From Escherichia coli (GTDB lineage: Bacteria > Pseudomonadota > Gammaproteobacteria > Enterobacterales > Enterobacteriaceae), in assembly GCF_003334405.1 (NCBI RefSeq), contig NZ_QOWM01000005.1: 64,000 nucleotides of DNA. One strand, 5' to 3'. The position numbers were made by a program, and so were the translations under genes. Of the stretch, positions 9,367 through 64,000 are shown piece after piece. Position 1 is the first letter of the stretch. Each line of letters starts with the position of its first letter. The notes beneath the pieces were generated by a model. That model was not told the origin of the DNA, searched no databases, and saw only the letters and a list, made by a program, of their open reading frames with translations.

Positions 9367-9870
<504 letters not shown>

Positions 9871-17485: not shown

Positions 17486-17660
<175 letters not shown>

Positions 17661-17776: not shown

Positions 17777-17863
17777 GCGAAGGTGGCGGAATTGGTAGAC
17801 GCGCTAGCTTCAGGTGTTAGTGTCCTTACGGACGTGGGGGTTCAAGTCCCCCCCCTCGCACCA
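17777..17863 (+). tRNA. tRNA-Leu (anticodon CAG), single copy
   Basis: 87-nt sequence gcgaaggtggcggaattggtagacgcg...ctcgcacca with encoded CCA end, long variable arm and anticodon loop cttCAGgt. Confidence 0.95.
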
Positions 17864-28081: not shown

Positions 28082-29276
<1,195 letters not shown>

Positions 29277-35029: not shown

Positions 35030-35233
35030 ATGTTTGGTAACTTAGGACAGGCAAAAAAATATCTCGGCCAGGCGGCGAAGATGTTGATTGGCATTCCAGA
35101 CTACGACAACTACGTCGAGCATATGAAGACCAACCATCCCGACAAGCCGTACATGAGCTATGAAGAATTCTTCCGCGAACGCCAGAACGCACGCTACGGC
35201 GGCGATGGTAAAGGCGGTATGCGCTGTTGTTAA
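35030..35233 (+). CDS. yjiX: small protein YjiX (DUF466)
   Basis: 67-aa [51 protein letters not shown]. Confidence 0.85.
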
Positions 35234-35243
35234 TGGAGAGAGC

Positions 35244-36200
35244 ATGAACCCGATTGCAGTTACCCTACTCACCGGTTTTTTAGGCGCGGGCAAAACCACC
35301 CTGCTGCGCCATATTCTTAACGAACAACACGGCTACAAGATTGCCGTGATTGAAAACGAATTCGGCGAAGTCTCCGTTGATGATCAACTGATTGGCGACC
35401 GCGCCACGCAGATCAAAACGCTGACCAACGGCTGCATCTGCTGTTCGCGCTCCAACGAGCTGGAAGACGCACTACTCGACCTGCTGGATAATCTCGACAA
35501 GGGCAATATTCAGTTCGACCGTCTGGTCATTGAATGCACCGGCATGGCCGATCCCGGCCCGATTATTCAGACCTTTTTCTCCCATGAGATTTTATGCCAG
35601 CGCTACCTGCTGGACGGCGTGATTGCGCTGGTGGATGCGGTACATGCCGATGAGCAGATGAACCAGTTCACCATCGCCCAGTCCCAGGTTGGCTACGCCG
35701 ACCGTATTCTGCTGACGAAAACCGACGTCGCAGGCGAAGCAGAGAAACTGCGTGAACGCCTGGCGCGCATCAACGCCCGCGCACCGGTCTACACCGTTAC
35801 CCACGGCGATATCGACCTGGGCCTTCTGTTCAACACCAACGGTTTTATGCTGGAAGAAAACGTCGTCAGCACCAAACCGCGTTTCCACTTTATCACGGAC
35901 AAACAAAACGATATTTCGTCGATTGTGGTGGAACTGGATTACCCGGTAGATATCAGCGAAGTTTCCCGGGTGATGGAAAACCTGCTGCTGGAGTCGGCGG
36001 ATAAACTACTGCGTTACAAAGGGATGCTATGGATTGACGGCGAACCTAACCGCCTGCTATTCCAGGGCGTCCAACGCCTCTACAGCGCCGACTGGGACCG
36101 CCCGTGGGGCGATGAAAAACCGCATAGCACGATGGTGTTTATCGGGATTCAGTTGCCGGAGGAAGAGATTCGGGCAGCGTTTGCGGGGTTGAGGAAGTAA
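35244..36200 (+). CDS. yjiA: COG0523/CobW-family GTPase YjiA
   Basis: 318-aa product MNPIAVTLLTGFLGAGKTTLLRHIL with P-loop and CxCC motif. Confidence 0.93.
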   Translation: MNPIAVTLLTGFLGAGKTTLLRHILNEQHGYKIAVIENEFGEVSVDDQLIGDRATQIKTLTNGCICCSRSNELEDALLDLLDNLDKGNIQFDRLVIECTGMADPGPIIQTFFSHEILCQRYLLDGVIALVDAVHADEQMNQFTIAQSQVGYADRILLTKTDVAGEAEKLRERLARINARAPVYTVTHGDIDLGLLFNTNGFMLEENVVSTKPRFHFITDKQNDISSIVVELDYPVDISEVSRVMENLLLESADKLLRYKGMLWIDGEPNRLLFQGVQRLYSADWDRPWGDEKPHSTMVFIGIQLPEEEIRAAFAGLRK

Positions 36201-36233
36201 TTTTGGATGATGGCCGCCATGTGGCGGCCTGAA

Positions 36234-36536
36234 TTATTTTTTGTTCTGATCGCGCAGCATCGCTTCACGTAAAATTGCGTTCAGGCGAGTTTGATAGCCT
36301 TTACCTGGTCGCTTCAACCATTCCATCACATCAGCATCAATACGCACCGAAGCCTGAGTTTTCAATGGCCGATAAAACTTACCGCGTTCGGCGTTAGACC
36401 ATTGCTCATCGCTGGAAGGTGGGATATCACTGTAATCAATATCTTCGTCGGATTTATTCGCCAGCGCCTTCAGTTCGGCCTCATGCTGCACATCGAGTGT
36501 AGAGGAGGTCCCTCGTTTATGTTTAACCATGCTCAT
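36234..36536 (-). CDS. BrnA-like antitoxin (100 aa, RHH/CopG-like)
   Basis: ORF from ATG 36536 (MSMVKHKRGTSSTLDVQHEAELKAL...VRIDADVMEWLKRPGKGYQTRLNAILREAML); start overlaps the stop of the upstream toxin frame (ATGAGCATGGTTAA). Confidence 0.7.
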   Translation of the reverse strand: MSMVKHKRGTSSTLDVQHEAELKALANKSDEDIDYSDIPPSSDEQWSNAERGKFYRPLKTQASVRIDADVMEWLKRPGKGYQTRLNAILREAMLRDQNKK

Positions 36537-36794
36537 AGCGATTCCTCTCTTTACGATCTGCTTTTCGTGCACTGATGATTCGAATAATTTCATTTCCGCT
36601 TTCGAAACGGATGGTATGCGCAACCAGAATAACCACGATGCCGTAATGTCTGCCAGCGATACTCACCGTTTTCTATGCGTTCTTGCTGTGACAAATGTTG
36701 TGGATCATCAAACAATAACACCGCATCTTCAAAGCGGATGCCATGTTTCACCCGATTACTTTTGGCCTTGTTTTCATCCCATTCAAACTCCATT
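36523..36794 (-). pseudogene. BrnT-like (DUF497) toxin gene disrupted by a 1-nt frameshift near 36640-36650
   Basis: N-terminal frame MEFEWDENKAKSNRVKHGIRFEDAVLLFDDPQHLSQQERIENGEYRWQTL then runs into a stop at 36590; the BrnT-like C-terminus GIVVILVAHTIRFESGNEIIRIISARKADRKERNRYEHG is in a different frame ending at TAA 36523. Confidence 0.65.
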
Positions 36795-36997
36795 GGCATA
36801 ATTGCCATCCCTAATTGTATATACAAAAATGTATCTACAATTATTCTGCAATTATAGCGTTGATGTTGGAAATAGCATCACGTTTCGAATAATCAACCAT
36901 GAAATTGACAATGAGTAAGTTGGACTTGATTCATCCAATAGAATTTCTCGCCTGACATGGCACACTAAACACCTCGCTGTCGGGTAATGACTCCAAC

Positions 36998-37501
36998 TTA
37001 CTGATAGTGTTTTATGTTCAGATAATGCCCGATGACCTTGTCATGCAGCTCCACCGATTTTGAGAACGACAGTGACTTCCGTCCCAGCCTTGCCAGATGT
37101 TGTCTCAGATTCAGATTATGTCGCTCAATGCGCTGAGTGTAACGCTTGCTGATAACGTGCAGCTTTCCCTTCAGGCGTGATTCATACAGCGGCCAGCCAT
37201 CCGTCATCTATACCACGACCTCAAAGGCCGACAGCAGGCTCAGAAGACGTTCCAGTGTGGCCAGAGTGCGTTCACCGAAGACGTGCGCCACAACCGTCCT
37301 CCGTATCCTGTCATACGCGTAAAACAGCCAGCGCTGACGTGATTTAGCACCGACGTAGCCCCACTGTTCGTCCATTTCAGCGCAGACAATCACATCACTG
37401 CCCGGTTGTATGCGCGAGGTTACCGACTGCGGCCTGAGTTTTTTAAGTGACGTAAAACCGTGTTGAGGCCAACGCCCATAATGCGTGCACTGGCGCGACA
37501 T
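36998..37501 (-). CDS. insB: IS1 InsB reading frame (expressed as InsAB' by frameshifting)
   Basis: ORF ending [69 protein letters not shown]. Confidence 0.9.
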
Positions 37502-37695
37502 CCGACGCCATTCATGGCCATATCAATGATTTTCTGGTGCGTACCGGGCTGAGAGGCGGTGTAAGTGAACTGTAGTTGCCATGTTTTACGGCAATGAGAG
37601 CAGAGATAGCGCTGATGTCCGGCAGTGCTTTTGCCGTTACGCACCACGCCTTCAGTAGCGGAGCAGGAAGGACATCTGATGGAAATGGAAGCCAC
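37420..37695 (-). CDS. insA: IS1 protein InsA
   Basis: 91-aa [46 protein letters not shown]. Confidence 0.95.
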
Positions 37696-37750
37696 GCAAG
37701 CACCTTAAAATCACCATCATACACTAAATCAGTAAGTTGGCAGCATTACC

Positions 37751-37846
37751 CGGATTCCATAATGATTCCACGCCCCGTTATGACAAATCTGCCGCCGATC
37801 TTGCCTGGCAAAGGACACTGAAATGGTTCGATAAATATCTCTCCTG
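37751..37846 (+). pseudogene. 3' remnant (31 codons plus stop) of a dienelactone-hydrolase-family gene truncated by IS1
   Basis: frame starting directly at the IS1 boundary encodes [31 protein letters not shown]-stop, which resembles a DLH-family C-terminus. Confidence 0.5.
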
Positions 37847-37965
37847 ATAGGTTTATCTCTTACGGGATTACGTCTTAAACAAGCATGAAAAAATAGCGTG
37901 CGCAAAAGTCGTTCTTTGCCTAAAATATCGCTATATATGGCGATATATAGCGAATAAAGTGAACG

Positions 37966-39225
37966 ATGAATAACCATTTTGGTAAAGGCTTAATGGCGGG
38001 ATTAAAAGCAACGCATGCCGCCACGCTGTTTTTCCCGATGGAGTTGATTTTGTATGATTTTGCCGCGTACCTGTCGACGGACCTGATTCAGCCGGGGATC
38101 ATTAATGTGGTCCGTGATTTTAATGCCGATGTCAGTCTGGCCCCGGCAGCCGTCAGTCTCTATCTCGCGGGCGGTATGGCGTTACAGTGGCTGCTGGGGC
38201 CGCTTTCCGACAGGATTGGCCGCAGGCCGGTGCTGATTACCGGGGCGCTAATATTTACCCTTGCCTGCGCTGCGACAATGTTCACAACGTCTATGACACA
38301 GTTTCTTATCGCGCGTGCAATTCAGGGCACCAGTATCTGTTTTATTGCCACCGTTGGTTATGTCACGGTGCAGGAGGCGTTCGGCCAGACAAAAGGGATC
38401 AGGTTGATGGCGATTATCACCTCCATCGTACTGATTGCGCCGATTATTGGCCCGCTTTCCGGCGCAGCTCTGATGCACTTTGTGCACTGGAAAGTCCTTT
38501 TTGCCATCATTGCGGTTATGGGGTTTATCTCATTTGTTGGCTTACTGCTGGCGATGCCAGAGACGGTGAAGCGCGGCGCGGTTCCATTTAGCGCCAAAAG
38601 CGTCTTGCGCGATTTTCGTAATGTCTTTTGCAATCGGCTGTTCCTCTTTGGCGCAGCAACCATCTCTTTAAGCTATATCCCAATGATGAGTTGGGTGGCT
38701 GTCTCGCCGGTGATCCTGATCGACGCGGGCGGCTTAACAACTTCGCAGTTCGCCTGGACACAGGTTCCGGTGTTCGGCGCGGTGATTGTCGCGAATGCCA
38801 TCGTGGCGCGTTTCGTTAAAGATCCAACCGAACCGCGCTTCATCTGGCGTGCCGTACCCATTCAACTGGTCGGCCTCGCGCTGTTGATTATCGGCAATCT
38901 GCTGTCACCGCACGTCTGGCTGTGGTCGGTGCTGGGCACCAGTTTGTATGCTTTCGGGATTGGTTTGATCTTCCCGACCTTATTCCGCTTTACGCTTTTT
39001 TCCAATAACTTACCGAAAGGGACCGTCTCCGCATCGCTGAATATGGTGATCCTGATGGTGATGTCTGTCTCGGTCGAAATCGGCCGCTGGCTGTGGTTTA
39101 ACGGCGGTCGCTTGCCGTTTCATCTGTTAGCCGTCGTGGCGGGCGTTATCGTCGTTTTCACCCTGGCAGGATTGCTTAATCGCGTGCGCCAACATCAGGC
39201 TGCCGAGCTGGCGGAGGAGCGGTGA
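37966..39225 (+). CDS. mdtM: MFS multidrug efflux transporter MdtM
   Basis: 419-aa ORF with MFS motif [16 protein letters not shown]; N-terminal residues and true start not verified. Confidence 0.88.
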
Positions 39226-56731: not shown

Positions 56732-57634
56732 TTATTGATAAACAAAAGTCACGGCAATAATCGATTGCACATTCCCTGCAGTCACCTGCCCTCCGGTACG
56801 TGCGTAATTTGCCGTTAATCCCAGACTTACCGCCGAAGTCCCTACTGCTCCTAACGATACCGTGTTATTCGCTGGAATAATCGTACCGTTGCGCGTCAAC
56901 TGTACGCCGACGCCCTGTGCAGGTGAAAACGACGCGGTATTGGTGAAAATCGAGTTGCCCGCATCTGCGGTTGTGCCGGAGAGGTAATACCCCAGGTTTT
57001 GGCTTTTCGCACAATAAACGGTAAGAGGAATCGGCACTGAACCAGGGTAGTCCGGCAGAGTAACGGTGACATCACGAGCAGAAACATCGCAGCCGCCAGT
57101 GGGCACCACCACATCATTATTGGCGTAAATATTCCACACAAACTGGAAATCATCGCTGTTATAGTTGTTGGTCTGTCGCAAAATAAGCACGGCAATTAAT
57201 GAGCCAGCTTTAATCACCACCCCGCCCGCACTGCTCACAGGCGTCAAATAAAGCGCCACCGGCCACGGCTTATCCGTTCTCGAATTATAAACAACCCGCG
57301 GCGTTTCACTGGTGGTCGGAAATGGATAGCTACTGCCACTATATTTTACGGTCCCGGAAAAATTAGATAACACGCCGCCATAAGCCGAGCCTCGTTGCAG
57401 TGTGACATAATCTGTAATGGTTTCCGGGTAATCGTTATGGCAAAAGATTTGCGTCGAAAGATCCACGACCAGGTTTTGCCCCACATTCACGGCGGGCGCA
57501 AGGTTTACATAAACATTGGCGCTGCCACCGCCAATAGGGATAGCGGTGCCATTGGCGGTTTTACAGGCGAATGACCAGGCATTTACCGACCAGCCCATCA
57601 GCAGTACAGCAAACAGGTTAATAACTCGTTTCAT
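56732..57634 (-). CDS. fimH: type 1 fimbrial adhesin (mannose-binding tip)
   Basis: 300-aa product MKRVINLFAVLLMGWSVNAWSFACKTANGTAIPIGGG. Confidence 0.97.
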   Translation of the reverse strand: MKRVINLFAVLLMGWSVNAWSFACKTANGTAIPIGGGSANVYVNLAPAVNVGQNLVVDLSTQIFCHNDYPETITDYVTLQRGSAYGGVLSNFSGTVKYSGSSYPFPTTSETPRVVYNSRTDKPWPVALYLTPVSSAGGVVIKAGSLIAVLILRQTNNYNSDDFQFVWNIYANNDVVVPTGGCDVSARDVTVTLPDYPGSVPIPLTVYCAKSQNLGYYLSGTTADAGNSIFTNTASFSPAQGVGVQLTRNGTIIPANNTVSLGAVGTSAVSLGLTANYARTGGQVTAGNVQSIIAVTFVYQ

Positions 57635-57653
57635 TACAATCATCTCTTCGGCT

Positions 57654-58157
57654 TCAGCTGTAGGTATAGGTGATGCTAATCACTGCCTGAATGGTTCCCT
57701 GAGTGGCTCCGCCATTTACCGTCAATGCTCTGACCTGTAACGGGAAGTGCGCTGATTGTGAGGAATCATCCACCTGAACTGTTTTGGTTGCGCCACTATT
57801 CAATGTGTTGCCACTGTCATCCTGTAGCTCTAACTGGATGTTTTGCGCGGTCCCCTGGTTTTTATAATATCCGGTACTGTCGGCTGCCCCGCTGAAGCTG
57901 GCAGTGACCCTCGACGTTCCCACCGGACAATTAGTCAACTCAAGCGCAACATCATGCCAGGCCGATGCCGCCCCGGCAGACATCAGACTGAAAGAATAAA
58001 GATCGCCGAGATCTACCGTGGCATTGGTGGTGGAAACCGTGCACGGTTTGGCGACGACCTTACCGTTCACCGTGATGGTGACATCGGCTGCCTGTATCGT
58101 CGCACTTGCGAGCGCCAATATTGCCGCCAATACATACCCACGTTTGCACCATTTCAT
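57654..58157 (-). CDS. fimG: type 1 fimbrial minor subunit FimG
   Basis: 167-aa ORF MKWCKRGYVLAAILALASATIQAADVTITVNGKVVAKPCTV. Confidence 0.95.
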   Translation of the reverse strand: MKWCKRGYVLAAILALASATIQAADVTITVNGKVVAKPCTVSTTNATVDLGDLYSFSLMSAGAASAWHDVALELTNCPVGTSRVTASFSGAADSTGYYKNQGTAQNIQLELQDDSGNTLNSGATKTVQVDDSSQSAHFPLQVRALTVNGGATQGTIQAVISITYTYS

Positions 58158-58169
58158 GAGCCTCTCCAG

Positions 58170-58700
58170 TTACTGATATTCAAGAGTGAAGGTAGCCGTG
58201 GCATTGATATGCCCCGCAGTGACAGGCACCTGTGTCGCCATTAGCCGGGCGTAAAAATTCAGCGTATTTGGTTTACCCGGCGTCAGGGTCGTCCACGAAA
58301 TCGCGGACGATGGGGCATTAATGGGTATCTGATTTTGTTGCTCATTCAGAAGCTGTATTCCCAGTCCCGCAACCGCTGACACCGTATTTTCAAGTGCAAG
58401 CAGGTTGGCATTGTGGCTATCTGCAACACCGGTAAACCCAACTTTTACGGCAGAAACGGCATTACCACAGGGTGACAGCAAAATACGAAATGGAACGACA
58501 GGAGTCGTCGCGCCAATGTTGTTAAATTGCTTCGCCGCGTTTTCCATCAGATCAACAGTAAAATTGGTTGATTCAGCGGCCACACTACAGCCGTTATCTC
58601 TGACATAGCCGCGGATAGTAATCGTGCTATCCGCAGCCAAAGCGTGACTTACCGCCAGCCACAAAAAAGCGCACAGAAGATAAAAAGGTTTGTTTCTCAT
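58170..58700 (-). CDS. fimF: type 1 fimbrial minor subunit FimF
   Basis: 176-aa product [33 protein letters not shown]. Confidence 0.95.
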
Positions 58701-58709
58701 CACGCCCCC

Positions 58710-61346
58710 TTAACGACATTCAGCTGATAGCTGAGTTAATAACTGCTGCTGACTCTCTGGTGGCAGTTGATAATTGGCGACACAGTGAGCATTTTCCTCT
58801 TCTCCCCATTTCACCTGAACTTTTCCCGCTAAAGGCATTCCGCTGAGGTAAACCTGACCATTATCCGCAACAATGCCGCTACTCTGGCTACTCTCTGATG
58901 TCACCATCGCCCCAAACGGCAGCGGCTTATTATTGTGGGTTAGCGTCATGAGCAGTTTTATCCCAACGCGCGCTTTAAACTCTGCTCGCACGATCGCCCC
59001 ACGGGTGGGAACAACGTTAGCGACCGCGTTATCTAAATCGACGTTATCAGCCAGGGTATTGGTATCCAGCGCTACTCTGTTCTCCCGATATTCAGTGGCA
59101 TAAGGCAGCACGGCATAACCGCGCCAGTCGGTACGCACCCCCGTCTGGTTTTCGACTTTTGCATCTTTTGCGCCAGGCGCTTTAACAAGCACCACCGTAT
59201 CGTTTAACGGCTGCCCCAGCGTTACGCCATTGGCATGAGCCAGTACCCCACCGCTGACTCCGTAATAGAGCTGCTTAATATCATCGCTATGGCTGTAACC
59301 GATGTTGGCATTGCCGTAACCACCGCGATAATTCAGCGTGGCGTAGCCTGTACTTCCGCTATTACCATCACCTCCCCCGGCGTAACCGGTTTGCACGCTA
59401 TAGCTGAGGTTGTTGTCTTCCAGCAACGTACCGTATACACCGACCAGATTGGTCATCCGACCGTTGAGATCGTGTGACATGCTGTAACTGGCACTGGCAT
59501 GTCGCCACTGAGATTTACTGTCAGAACGCAGCCAGTGGCTGAAAGGAATATTGACGTTAAGCGCTAACATCTGATCCCGTCCTTTTTGCCAGGCGTTTTT
59601 CGTCAGGCTATAGCTGAGCGTCCAGTTGATATCTTCGAATGCAGTATTTAAACCAGCCTGGAATTGCTCATCGACATTACTCGTTCCCCAATAAGTTTGA
59701 TGGCTACCACTCAAATACAGTGTTGATGTGCGCCCGAGTTGCTGAGTAACGGTGAGTTGTAATTTCCCGCGTTTGTTATAAGCGAGATTGTAATAGTCGG
59801 TGAATTTCGGCTTAACCTGAATAACACCATCCTGTGTTTCGATGTTGTAGCCATTCATTCGACTGTATGTTGTATCAGCGAAATTAAAATATCCGCTGGT
59901 CGAATAACGGTAACCCACTAACTGAATATTCGTGCCTGATTCATTGAGCGATTTGTTATAGAGAAAACGCACCGATTGTCCGTCATGCTGACTGTCATCG
60001 GGAAGTGTGGAATTAGCCTGCGTCATATCCACAGACAGAGCGCCCAGTGCCCCCATGTTTTTCCCGATACCGAAATTAAACGCACGATAACGATCCGCCA
60101 GTTGCGTTCCACCATATATTGTCCAGCCAGCCGGAAGGCCGTGGAGTAATGTACTCTGGAAAAAGCGGGGTTTTTCCTGCTGCGCATTTCCACTACGGTA
60201 TTCTCCTGCCGTAATGGAATAACGAGTATGCCCTTCACGTTGCAAAAGCGGGACTGACGAATAGGGTACGGTAAAGATCTGCGTGCTGCCGTCAGCCTCT
60301 TTAATCGTTACCTGCAAGTCACCACTATTACCTGCGGCATAGATATCGTTGATGGTAAAAGGCCCCGGCGGCACCGTACTATTATAAATGTCATACCCAT
60401 TTTGTTTAATAGTGACCTGTGCAGTACCACGAGCAATACCGTGGATCACCGGAGCAAATCCTCTTTGGCTATCGGGTAACATATTGTCATCTGAGGCCAA
60501 TTGTGCGCCGCGAAAGTTAATACCATCGAAAATATCGCCCTGGGTATAACCATCACCCAGCGTCAGCCGGGAACGTAACGGAATTATGTCTCGCTCAAGC
60601 CAGGTATTGATATGCTGCCATTTATTTTTGCTACCTGATGAACTGTCGCTACTGTTATAACTCCAGGTGGTATTGTCGCGTAAACGCCACGCACCAATAT
60701 TTAACCCACTCTGTAGGTTTAAATATGCATAATGGCTGTTACCCCCAATCCGATTCTGTACACTATTTCCGCTGAAATTATAATTGAGCAATCCGGCATT
60801 AATACCAGGATCCCATAACTCAGGAGGAATATAACCACGCGCGCGATTACTCATAAATGCCTGAGGGATCGTCAGGTTGAGTCGCTGCTGACCAACATCC
60901 AGATGCGCAGTAGCGTCATGGATCATTGAGGTTAATGGCACGCAGGCATCATCCGCCAGCAGATTCATACCGGAGACAGAAGCCGTATTCAGCTCCATAC
61001 TTGCAAGTTGCGCGCGTGTCAGGCAGGGAACAATCCCTTGTTCACTGTCGCCCGTATTAAATGTGACATCACGCGTTGCCATATAACCATTATTCAAATA
61101 GATATCGACACGATACGTCCCTGGCGGTAATTCTTGCCCATTTTCAAAACGCGATAAATCGGCCACAGCCTGGGGATCATCCGCTAAAAAGCGCGGATTA
61201 AAATAGAGTTCGGCAGATGACAAAGGTGCCTGTGCGGCAAAAGCACAGGCGACAAAGAGCCGGACAAAAAAACCAGCCAAACGATGCTTACGAATATGCA
61301 AGCATTGTGTGTTTCGCTGGTAAAGTCTTAAATTCAGATATGACAT
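58710..61346 (-). CDS. fimD: type 1 fimbrial outer-membrane usher
   Basis: 878-aa ORF. Confidence 0.97.
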   Translation of the reverse strand: MSYLNLRLYQRNTQCLHIRKHRLAGFFVRLFVACAFAAQAPLSSAELYFNPRFLADDPQAVADLSRFENGQELPPGTYRVDIYLNNGYMATRDVTFNTGDSEQGIVPCLTRAQLASMELNTASVSGMNLLADDACVPLTSMIHDATAHLDVGQQRLNLTIPQAFMSNRARGYIPPELWDPGINAGLLNYNFSGNSVQNRIGGNSHYAYLNLQSGLNIGAWRLRDNTTWSYNSSDSSSGSKNKWQHINTWLERDIIPLRSRLTLGDGYTQGDIFDGINFRGAQLASDDNMLPDSQRGFAPVIHGIARGTAQVTIKQNGYDIYNSTVPPGPFTINDIYAAGNSGDLQVTIKEADGSTQIFTVPYSSVPLLQREGHTRYSITAGEYRSGNAQQEKPRFFQSTLLHGLPAGWTIYGGTQLADRYRAFNFGIGKNMGALGALSVDMTQANSTLPDDSQHDGQSVRFLYNKSLNESGTNIQLVGYRYSTSGYFNFADTTYSRMNGYNIETQDGVIQVKPKFTDYYNLAYNKRGKLQLTVTQQLGRTSTLYLSGSHQTYWGTSNVDEQFQAGLNTAFEDINWTLSYSLTKNAWQKGRDQMLALNVNIPFSHWLRSDSKSQWRHASASYSMSHDLNGRMTNLVGVYGTLLEDNNLSYSVQTGYAGGGDGNSGSTGYATLNYRGGYGNANIGYSHSDDIKQLYYGVSGGVLAHANGVTLGQPLNDTVVLVKAPGAKDAKVENQTGVRTDWRGYAVLPYATEYRENRVALDTNTLADNVDLDNAVANVVPTRGAIVRAEFKARVGIKLLMTLTHNNKPLPFGAMVTSESSQSSGIVADNGQVYLSGMPLAGKVQVKWGEEENAHCVANYQLPPESQQQLLTQLSAECR

Positions 61347-61412
61347 TATTCCTCCGGTTTAAAATCACCCGGCAGTCAATTCTTTTTATTCAGGCGAAAA
61401 ATTCCCCCTGCG

Positions 61413-62138
61413 TTATTCCATTACGCCCGTCATTTTGGGGGTAAGTGCGCCATAATCATTTATTGTTCGGTAAGTAATATTGCTTCCTGCATCAGAAGGC
61501 AATTTAACCGTGCTTTCGCCCATTGGAGGCACCAATGCATTTTCAAGAACCCGGGTTCCGGCATTCAACTCTGTTACCGTCAGGTAATAGGGTGTCGGGT
61601 TAATCAGAGTCAGAGAATTCGCGCTACGACGAAATCTTAATTTTTCTGCGGCCTGATCGGGTGGCAACGCTAATTTAGCCGGGCGATAGTACAGTTTAAT
61701 GCGGCTGATAATTGCGAGCTGTAGCGTATTCTCAGTCAATTTTGATTTATCCATTGACGGAATCGCTTTAACGTTCATCCAGAATAAACTTTCCCGATCC
61801 TGTGGCAATTGGTTATTTGTTGCATCAAGAATACGTAAGGTATTCTCTTTTTTTCCCTTCATCGCAAACAGAGGTGGCGTCACGATAAAACGACCATCCT
61901 TTACACCATCGGCATTTTCCACCCATGATTGAATTAAATAGGTGCTATTTTCATCATTATTTGTCACGGCAAGTTGCACTTGTTTTTGCCCTGCCGGATA
62001 AATTACGCGAGTCGCACCTAAGGCCACTCCCGCTTCGGCGCGTCCGGCAACCATCATTGCCATGAACATCAGGATACCTGCCAGCAAGCAGAATGTTATT
62101 TCCTGCGATTTCCTTACATTGACGTTTTTATTACTCAC
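61413..62138 (-). CDS. fimC: type 1 fimbrial periplasmic chaperone
   Basis: 241-aa ORF MSNKNVNVRKSQEITFCLLAGILMFMAMMVAGRAEAGVALGATRVIYPAGQKQ. Confidence 0.97.
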   Translation of the reverse strand: MSNKNVNVRKSQEITFCLLAGILMFMAMMVAGRAEAGVALGATRVIYPAGQKQVQLAVTNNDENSTYLIQSWVENADGVKDGRFIVTPPLFAMKGKKENTLRILDATNNQLPQDRESLFWMNVKAIPSMDKSKLTENTLQLAIISRIKLYYRPAKLALPPDQAAEKLRFRRSANSLTLINPTPYYLTVTELNAGTRVLENALVPPMGESTVKLPSDAGSNITYRTINDYGALTPKMTGVME

Positions 62139-62174
62139 TGTCCTGTTCCTGTTATCACATTATCTGCTGAACAA

Positions 62175-62714
62175 TTACTGATAGGTTAAAGAGAACCAGG
62201 CCTGGGCATTGGCGATGCCGCCAGTAACCCGACGCCCGGTAGCACGATATTTGGCGATGAAATGTAGCGAAGTAGAGCCTGAGTAAAGCCGTTTCCAGTT
62301 TGCTGGAGGACGATTAATCGGTACGAGGTTTCCTTCATCATCAAACAACGCTACGCCAATATTGGTGGCTATCCCTGGCCCCTCTCCCACGGAAAGCACA
62401 TCTGGATTTTTACCATCCGCGACACCGTGAAACGCCACACCCACACGTTCACTCACCACCGTGCTACATTCCCGTAAATGAATAACAAAAGGCACCGGTG
62501 CGCTATCTTCCCCTACCGCATGAAACCGGTTACTGCTGATTTGCCCCATATTGACCGTCATTTGTTTATCACCGGCTTCAATCCGGCAAGTTTCCGCAAT
62601 AATGACGCCCTGAAATTGCATATTTCCGCCGGGCAGCGTGGTGTTCCATTTATTTCCGGCCAGAGCAAACATTGGCAGCAACGACGCTAATAGAAATAAT
62701 CTCTTCCTTTTCAT
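62175..62714 (-). CDS. fimI: fimbrin-like protein FimI
   Basis: 179-aa product from ATG 62714 ([43 protein letters not shown]); track ORF extends to 62846. Confidence 0.85.
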
Positions 62715-62778
62715 CGTTATTTTTATCGCACAAGGGTGGGCATCCCTGCCCGTAATGACGTCCCTGAACCTGGGTAGG

Positions 62779-63333
62779 TTATTGATACTGAACCTTGAAG
62801 GTCGCATCCGCATTAGCAGCACCCGGGGTTGCCTCGCCGATTGCATAATAACGCGCCTGGAACGGAATGGTGTTGGTACCGTTATTCAGGGTTGTTTGTG
62901 CACTAAATGTCGCACCGTCCAGCGTCAGCTCATTTCCTGTTCTGTCCAGTATCTGCACACCAACATTTGTTGCGCTACCCGCAGCTGAACTCTGCAGAGC
63001 CAGTACTTTAGGATGAGCACTGTCAATCGCAGTCCCCAAGAAGGCAACAGCGGCTTTTGTGGCAACACTGGTATCGCAATCATTCAGCTGAATGTTAAAA
63101 CCGACAGCAGAGCTGGTTGCTCCAGTCTGCTTCAGACTAGCGGTACGAACCTGGCCCAACTGAACGGTTTGATCAACAGATCCTGCATCAACTGCGCAAG
63201 CGGCGTTAACAACTTCCCCTTTAAAGTGAACGGTCCCACCATTTACCGTCGTGGGTGTAGTTTCAGCCAGAGCCGCTGTAGAACTCAGGGACAGAGCCGA
63301 CAGAACAACAATTGCCAGAGTTTTAATTTTCAT
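62779..63333 (-). CDS. fimA: type 1 fimbrial major subunit (a non-K-12 allele)
   Basis: 184-aa [51 protein letters not shown]; RBS aaaggaaagc. Confidence 0.95.
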
Positions 63334-63452
63334 ACTGCTTTCCTTTCAAAAAACTATTTCTAAATCGACATGGGCAGTCGTTCCGTACACTTTGTTTTGT
63401 CAACGAGTTTGACTGCCAACACTGCACAGTTTCCCCCCAAAAGATGAAACAT

Positions 63453-63767
63453 TTGGGGCCATTTTGACTCATAGAGGAAAGCATCGCGCACAAACTTTTT
63501 CAGTTTATTTGTTGGCTTTATATTCTATTGTTATCTTTATTTATAGATTTTTATATTGCATGAGGTGGTTTTTGGAGAGAAGAATGAGGAAGTTGCTTCG
63601 AGACACAGAAACGTTAGCTTTACATTTAGCGGAGGTGATGTGAAATTAATTTACAAGAGAAATGATTTACATATCAAACAGTTAGATGCTTTTTGTCGTT
63701 TTATAATATTTTTATGCTTGAGAAAAAATACGTAACTTATTTATGATATGGACAGTTTTGGCCCCAA
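63453..63767. other. fim invertible element (fimS) bounded by 9-bp inverted repeats TTGGGGCCA / TGGCCCCAA
   Basis: ttggggcca at 63453-63461 and tggccccaa at 63759-63767, about 315 bp apart, between fimE 3' end and fimA. Confidence 0.9.
63718..63748 (+). promoter_or_regulatory. fimA promoter inside fimS (TTGAGA - 18 bp - TATGATA), reading on the plus strand away from fimA
   Basis: only good sigma70-like hexamer pair in the element; -10 ends about 10 bp before the fimE-proximal repeat; fimA is on the minus strand at lower coordinates. Confidence 0.5.
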
Positions 63768-63814
63768 TTGTCTTGTATTTATTTGTTTTTTACCTTTACT
63801 ATCAATAAGTTAAA

Positions 63815-64000
63815 TTAAACCTCTTCTCTTTTTAATTTTTCGTTTATAAGATTATTTCTTTCCCATAATCCGGCAAAACGAGCAGCATTACTGGCGGTAT
63901 AACGCACAGTATGGCGAATATTTCGATGCCCGAGATAATCCTGAATTAAACGGGTATCTGCACCACGCTCCGCCAGTTCATAACCGCAAGCATGCCTTAA
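63815..64000 (-). CDS. fimE: fim switch recombinase FimE, 3' end only (gene continues past window end)
   Basis: minus-strand frame ends ...RFAGLWERNNLINEKLKREEV-stop at 63815-63817; tyrosine-recombinase C-terminal motif HTVRY. Confidence 0.85.
   Translation of the reverse strand, partial: LRHACGYELAERGADTRLIQDYLGHRNIRHTVRYTASNAARFAGLWERNNLINEKLKREEV

Follow-up and report, generated by a model that had tools for sequence, protein, structure and literature searches.

The type 1 fimbrial switch fimS in an Escherichia coli contig and its apparent phase-OFF orientation

The fim locus and its invertible element

The DNA analyzed here, called the window, is a stretch of 64,000 nucleotides from Escherichia coli contig NZ_QOWM01000005.1, and its upper end carries most of the fim gene cluster. 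The gene for the major subunit, fimA, is an intact open reading frame of 184 codons on the minus strand at 62779-63333, the strand and side on which the sequence-only reading had placed it. The genes fimI, fimC, fimD, fimF, fimG, and fimH, all of them open reading frames, occupy 56732-62714 on the same strand. Just after fimA, at 62734-62768 on the minus strand, lies the sequence of the FimR2 small RNA, identical to the K-12 annotation. FimR2 is reportedly processed from the fim operon transcript (PMC9723502), so its production should also depend on phase ON. At the window's upper edge (63815-64000, minus strand) is the 3' end of fimE, cut by the end of the window after the last 60 codons plus stop; this fragment matches positions 139-198 of the 198 in profile NF007371, a tyrosine-type DNA invertase, at its C-terminal end. 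The rest of fimE, and fimB, lie beyond the window. A genome with no difference from the window over 39001-64000 carries fimE at the corresponding position, and both fimE and fimB are intact there.

Between fimE and fimA lies a segment of 315 bp, at 63453-63767, whose G+C content is 32%, versus 51% for the window as a whole. It is bounded by, and its length includes, two 9-bp inverted repeats. The fimA-proximal repeat, TTGGGGCCA, occupies 63453-63461 on the plus strand and corresponds to IRR in the convention that draws fimE on the left; the fimE-proximal repeat, IRL, occupies 63759-63767 on the minus strand, where the plus strand reads TGGCCCCAA. The start codon of fimA is 119 bp from the former, and the stop codon of fimE is 47 bp from the latter. 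A re-reading of the sequence finds both repeats where the sequence-only reading had them, and every other coordinate it gave is likewise correct. Both repeats are perfect, and the 9-mer occurs nowhere else in the 64 kb, once per strand in inverted arrangement. Its chance expectation is 0.61, and two or more matches were reached in 14 of 100 shuffles, so the count taken by itself is weak evidence and was rejected as proof of significance. Imperfect pairing between the two ends, at 77%, reaches 22 nt (63440-63461 with 63759-63780, by repeat finder), which we take to reflect recombinase half-sites flanking the core repeats.

Identity of the segment is certain because of its homology to the K-12 element, rather than because of its repeats or promoter hexamers. 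Aligned in operon sense to fimS of MG1655 (NC_000913.3, between fimE b4313 and fimA b4314), it is identical at 304 of 314 positions, leaving 10 substitutions and one indel; the two share repeats, position, orientation, promoter hexamers, and SnaBI site, while the FimA alleles differ (184 residues in the window, 182 in MG1655). Compared to fimS of UTI89 (NC_007946.1), whose orientation and architecture it shares, it is identical at 300 of 314 positions, with 14 substitutions and a length difference of 1 bp. A segment of about 314 bp with perfect 9-bp repeats, situated between fimE and fimA and homologous to the K-12 element, is what defines fimS, and comparative evidence adds inversion itself: strain 102651 has the same allele in reverse, with the inversion bounded exactly by the repeats. 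Sequence comparison thus confirms the feature as the E. coli type 1 fimbrial phase switch fimS, a real but ordinary example of biology already known.

The indel accounts for the length of the window's allele, 315 bp versus the canonical 314. It is a single extra T, in plus-strand terms, in the T run nearest the promoter (63752-63758), where the window has four T and both K-12 and UTI89 have three. The extra base sits between the -10 hexamer and the promoter-proximal repeat.

Orientation of the element

By definition, the switch is ON when its promoter is directed at fimA and OFF when that promoter is disconnected from fimA (PMC2647292; PMC2636892). The window's fimS has its promoter end beside fimE, pointing toward that gene. 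The promoter hexamers, TTGAGA at 63718 and TATGAT at 63742-63747, separated by 18 nt (63718-63747, plus strand), agree with the consensus at 10 of 12 positions and are the best sigma-70 match found by a consensus scan of 63300-64000. A gap of 12 nt separates them from the fimE-proximal repeat, and they read toward fimE, away from fimA. The same hexamers occur in the same place in K-12 and UTI89, and are inverted in the genomes of Z142-7 and 102651. Where the sequence-only reading described this pair, its coordinates, strand, and direction stand; its view that the pair is the only good one does not, as the scan also returned three weaker sites, each matching 9 of 12 positions, at 63497 and 63528 on the plus strand and at 63677 on the minus strand. 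The last of these (63677-63648) faces fimA in the window's orientation. The total of four sites compares to 2.1 +/- 1.4 in shuffled sequence, which is not above chance for DNA this AT-rich, and a consensus scan that includes one weak site facing fimA was judged insufficient as proof of orientation. Homology to the K-12 switch, which has been mapped, is instead the basis for assigning the fimA promoter. Olsen and Klemm reportedly mapped the transcription start site of this promoter in 1994.

Orientation was evaluated by three tests chosen to be independent of the hexamer reading. The first is a restriction assay that the sequence-only reading had proposed, based on the SnaBI site TACGTA at 63729-63734, which falls in the promoter spacer and serves as an asymmetric marker. 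In the published assay, primers CAGTAATGCTGCTCGTTTTGCCG and CAGAGCCGACAGAACAACG yield a 601-bp amplicon that SnaBI cuts into 403 and 198 bp in the ON state and 440 and 161 bp in the OFF state (PMC11724981; PMC4374849). Run in silico with the published primers, of which CAGAGCCGACAGAACAACG has a single 3' mismatch to the window's fimA allele, the assay gives 162 and 440 bp for the window, which is the published OFF pattern, and the same two fragments for MG1655 and K-12 DHB4. The inverted genome, Z142-7, gives 405 and 196 bp, near the published ON pattern. A HinfI orientation assay was tried and set aside for the window; the fimA-side primer has more than three mismatches to this fimA allele, and no amplicon results. 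The HinfI assay in silico gives 359 and 201 bp for MG1655 and DHB4, and 75 and 484 bp for Z142-7.

The second test is comparison to a genome whose state is in print. The UTI89 reference genome is described as fimS OFF (bioRxiv 10.1101/494401), and the window's element aligns to it in the same orientation with a score of 284, versus -27 when inverted. The window's orientation also matches that of MG1655.

For the third test, an ON version was constructed by inverting 63453-63767 within the span 63250-63950, and was searched against complete genomes. Strain 102651 (NZ_CP189662.1) matches this constructed sequence at 100% over all 701 bases. Direct comparison of 102651 to the window shows identical flanks, an element that becomes identical, base for base, only after inversion, and promoter hexamers that face fimA; the comparison, extended by 1703 bases on the fimA side, adds just one mismatch. 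Because the flanks are the same while the element is inverted, what separates the two states is a clean, repeat-to-repeat inversion. The SnaBI pattern, the orientation shared with UTI89 and MG1655, and the inverted twin in 102651 together support the claim of the sequence-only reading that the switch is OFF for fimAICDFGH, with the promoter apparently directed away from fimA. That reading had added, rightly, that OFF describes the sequenced molecule or the consensus of its population.

Proposed effect and alternative readings

We consider it about 95% probable that this region is a fimS switch with the promoter of fimAICDFGH disconnected from its operon, that is, in phase OFF. According to the literature, the tyrosine recombinases FimB and FimE would invert the 315-bp segment by recombination within the 9-bp repeats, and the sigma-70 promoter of fimAICDFGH would lie near one end of the segment, the end found here beside fimE. 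With the promoter end in that place and reading toward fimE, the operon should be cut off from its promoter. Published work on the switch leads us to expect that the promoter, where active, would fire toward fimE and leave fimA and the rest of the operon silent, and that cells with the window's arrangement would make neither type 1 fimbriae nor FimR2 RNA derived from the operon. A Rho-dependent terminator inside fimS is described as shortening and destabilizing the fimE transcript in the OFF orientation only (PMC2647292; PMC5386303; PMC9993118). The window's orientation would present this terminator to the fimE transcript, and early termination of that transcript is predicted.

The OFF state could also be fixed rather than momentary. 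A lesion outside the window, in fimB or fimE, or the extra A/T pair next to the promoter-proximal repeat, may have locked the switch; with that pair, the inner recombinase half-site could also be displaced by 1 bp, altering the rate or bias of switching. We regard such readings as unlikely. They have precedent, as locked-OFF lineages are documented among EHEC and ST131 (bioRxiv 10.1101/494401) as well as for EPEC E2348/69, and also for Shigella (PMC4374849). The window ends within fimE, so that fimB and most of fimE fall past the inspected sequence, its element has 1 bp more than the canonical 314, and two close relatives, H1 and H31, carry IS1 inside the 701-bp fimA-fimE query span. Against a locked state, both repeats are perfect, and the FimE and FimB proteins of the genome identical over 39001-64000 are the same as those of K-12. 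The 315-bp allele also occurs in both orientations in nature and appears to be OFF no more often than other alleles are. The identical allele is inverted in 102651, and alleles 99.4-99.9% identical to it show the inverted state in 20 or more further genomes among the matches listed, so the extra base is no bar to inversion. The deposited sequences of EHEC O157:H7, EPEC E2348/69, and Shigella are OFF, as is the window, but in those lineages the state is fixed by changes in the switch, recombinase mutations, or regulators, whereas the window's element is of full length, has perfect repeats, and represents an allele that is inverted elsewhere. By this comparison the window's allele is evidently switchable, and it is improbable that a lesion elsewhere in the genome locks it.

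Two other readings question the orientation itself rather than its permanence. The true fimA promoter might lie elsewhere in the element and face fimA, in which case the sequence would really be ON; the minus-strand site of 9 of 12 positions does read toward fimA, and consensus matches in the region do not exceed chance. We give this almost no credence, however. The published restriction assay, calibrated on fimbriation phenotypes, returns OFF with no use of the hexamers, and the UTI89 reference, oriented alike, is stated to be OFF. Overexpression of fimB or fimX, which biases the switch toward ON, gave a signal of fimS inversion relative to the UTI89 reference (bioRxiv 10.1101/494401). It is also very unlikely, if slightly less so, that the orientation is an artefact of assembly that corresponds to no real molecule. 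Invertible segments from a mixed culture may be resolved arbitrarily, but both junctions here are contiguous with unique flanks, and identical junctions occur in thousands of independent complete assemblies. Repeats of 9 bp are far too short to mislead an assembler, and the consensus orientation therefore requires reads that span the junctions. Phase OFF in an allele able to invert remains the preferred reading.

Frequency of the OFF orientation among genomes

The region found matches in 4721 of 5426 complete E. coli genomes. The window's arrangement, counted where a single contiguous place covers at least 80% of the query, occurs in 4458 genomes, the inverted arrangement occurs in 248, and about 15 show neither; OFF and ON thus make up about 95% and 5%, respectively, of the 4706 complete genomes that could be classified. 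Because FimE drives switching from ON to OFF, shaken broth cultures are mostly OFF. With about 95% of genomes OFF, this orientation in a deposited genome is the default and no surprise, and the recorded state most likely represents the majority orientation of the culture that was sequenced, as in most deposited genomes. Similar observations appear elsewhere. The deposited sequence of EPEC E2348/69 is OFF, a laboratory evolution study refers to an "ancestral off" state, and of the 129 Shigella genome sequences available at the time, every one had the switch OFF (PMC4374849).

The orientation in an assembly is consequently to be read as a default rather than as a property of the strain, and the tally of 95% to 5% supplies a useful baseline. 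For users of a deposited genome, the orientation of fimS tells them that their reference represents the non-fimbriate state. Against such a reference, read mappers will call an "inversion" in fimbriate cultures, and predictions of fimA expression based on the promoter in the reference will be misleading. Beyond correct annotation, the observation has little importance.

Other features of the window and its relatives

Strains H1 (NZ_CP060969.1) and H31 (NZ_CM134208.1) match the window's fimA-fimS-fimE segment at 100% identity, and both have an IS1 inside this span, which runs from the 5' end of fimA through fimS into the 3' end of fimE. One of the two has the window's arrangement and the other the inverted one. 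If IS1 disrupts fimE or the switch, these strains could be locked variants of the window's allele.

The half of the window that contains the fim, uxu, and yji genes (39001-64000) is 100% identical to many genomes, 2017.20.01CC among them. Over 1-39000, the best of those genomes shows 93-98% identity across the lplA-deo-prfC region and 99.2-99.7% across the fhuF-tsr region. This pattern suggests that the window is a mosaic with respect to its closest relatives, with recombination breakpoints inside it.

Several loci differ in gene content from an annotated comparison genome or from K-12. The 1332-bp gene yjjJ, encoding a HipA-family toxin, stands between lplA and deoD in that genome and is missing from the window, where lplA (947-1963) is separated from the deoD side by only about 290 bp that match no family (1963-2255). 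An IS5-family element at 28083-29276, with a transposase open reading frame of 326 codons on the minus strand (28228-29208), stands where the comparison genome has lgoR, a GntR-type regulator gene between lgoD and lgoT. The gene lgoR thus appears to have been replaced rather than just interrupted. The restriction cluster hsd-mcr-mrr, which in K-12 we take to lie between yjiA and mdtM, is absent from the window at about 35160-39225. Gene order there, read by alignment to the annotated comparison genome at 99.2% identity, runs from yjiA to a brnT/brnA toxin-antitoxin pair (about 36234-36810), a degraded IS1 (36998-37695), the remnant of a hydrolase gene, and then mdtM.

Repeated sequences also vary. 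Between yjjW and yjjV, at 9377-9864, a 101-bp REP-type unit is repeated 4.8 times in tandem, and the comparison genome has an array of another length. The units score as naRNA4 (Rfam), with five hits above the gathering score, some of them on both strands. One more copy occurs at 17555-17637, between rsmC and a tRNA gene. That gene, a single tRNA-Leu(CAG) at 17777-17863 on the plus strand, lies between rsmC and yjjZ, at a position where strain 2017.20.01CC has three tandem tRNA-Leu copies, presumably the leuQPV array of K-12. In the window, recombination appears to have collapsed the first copy onto the third. The one-copy arrangement is matched contiguously in about 507 of the 5426 complete genomes.
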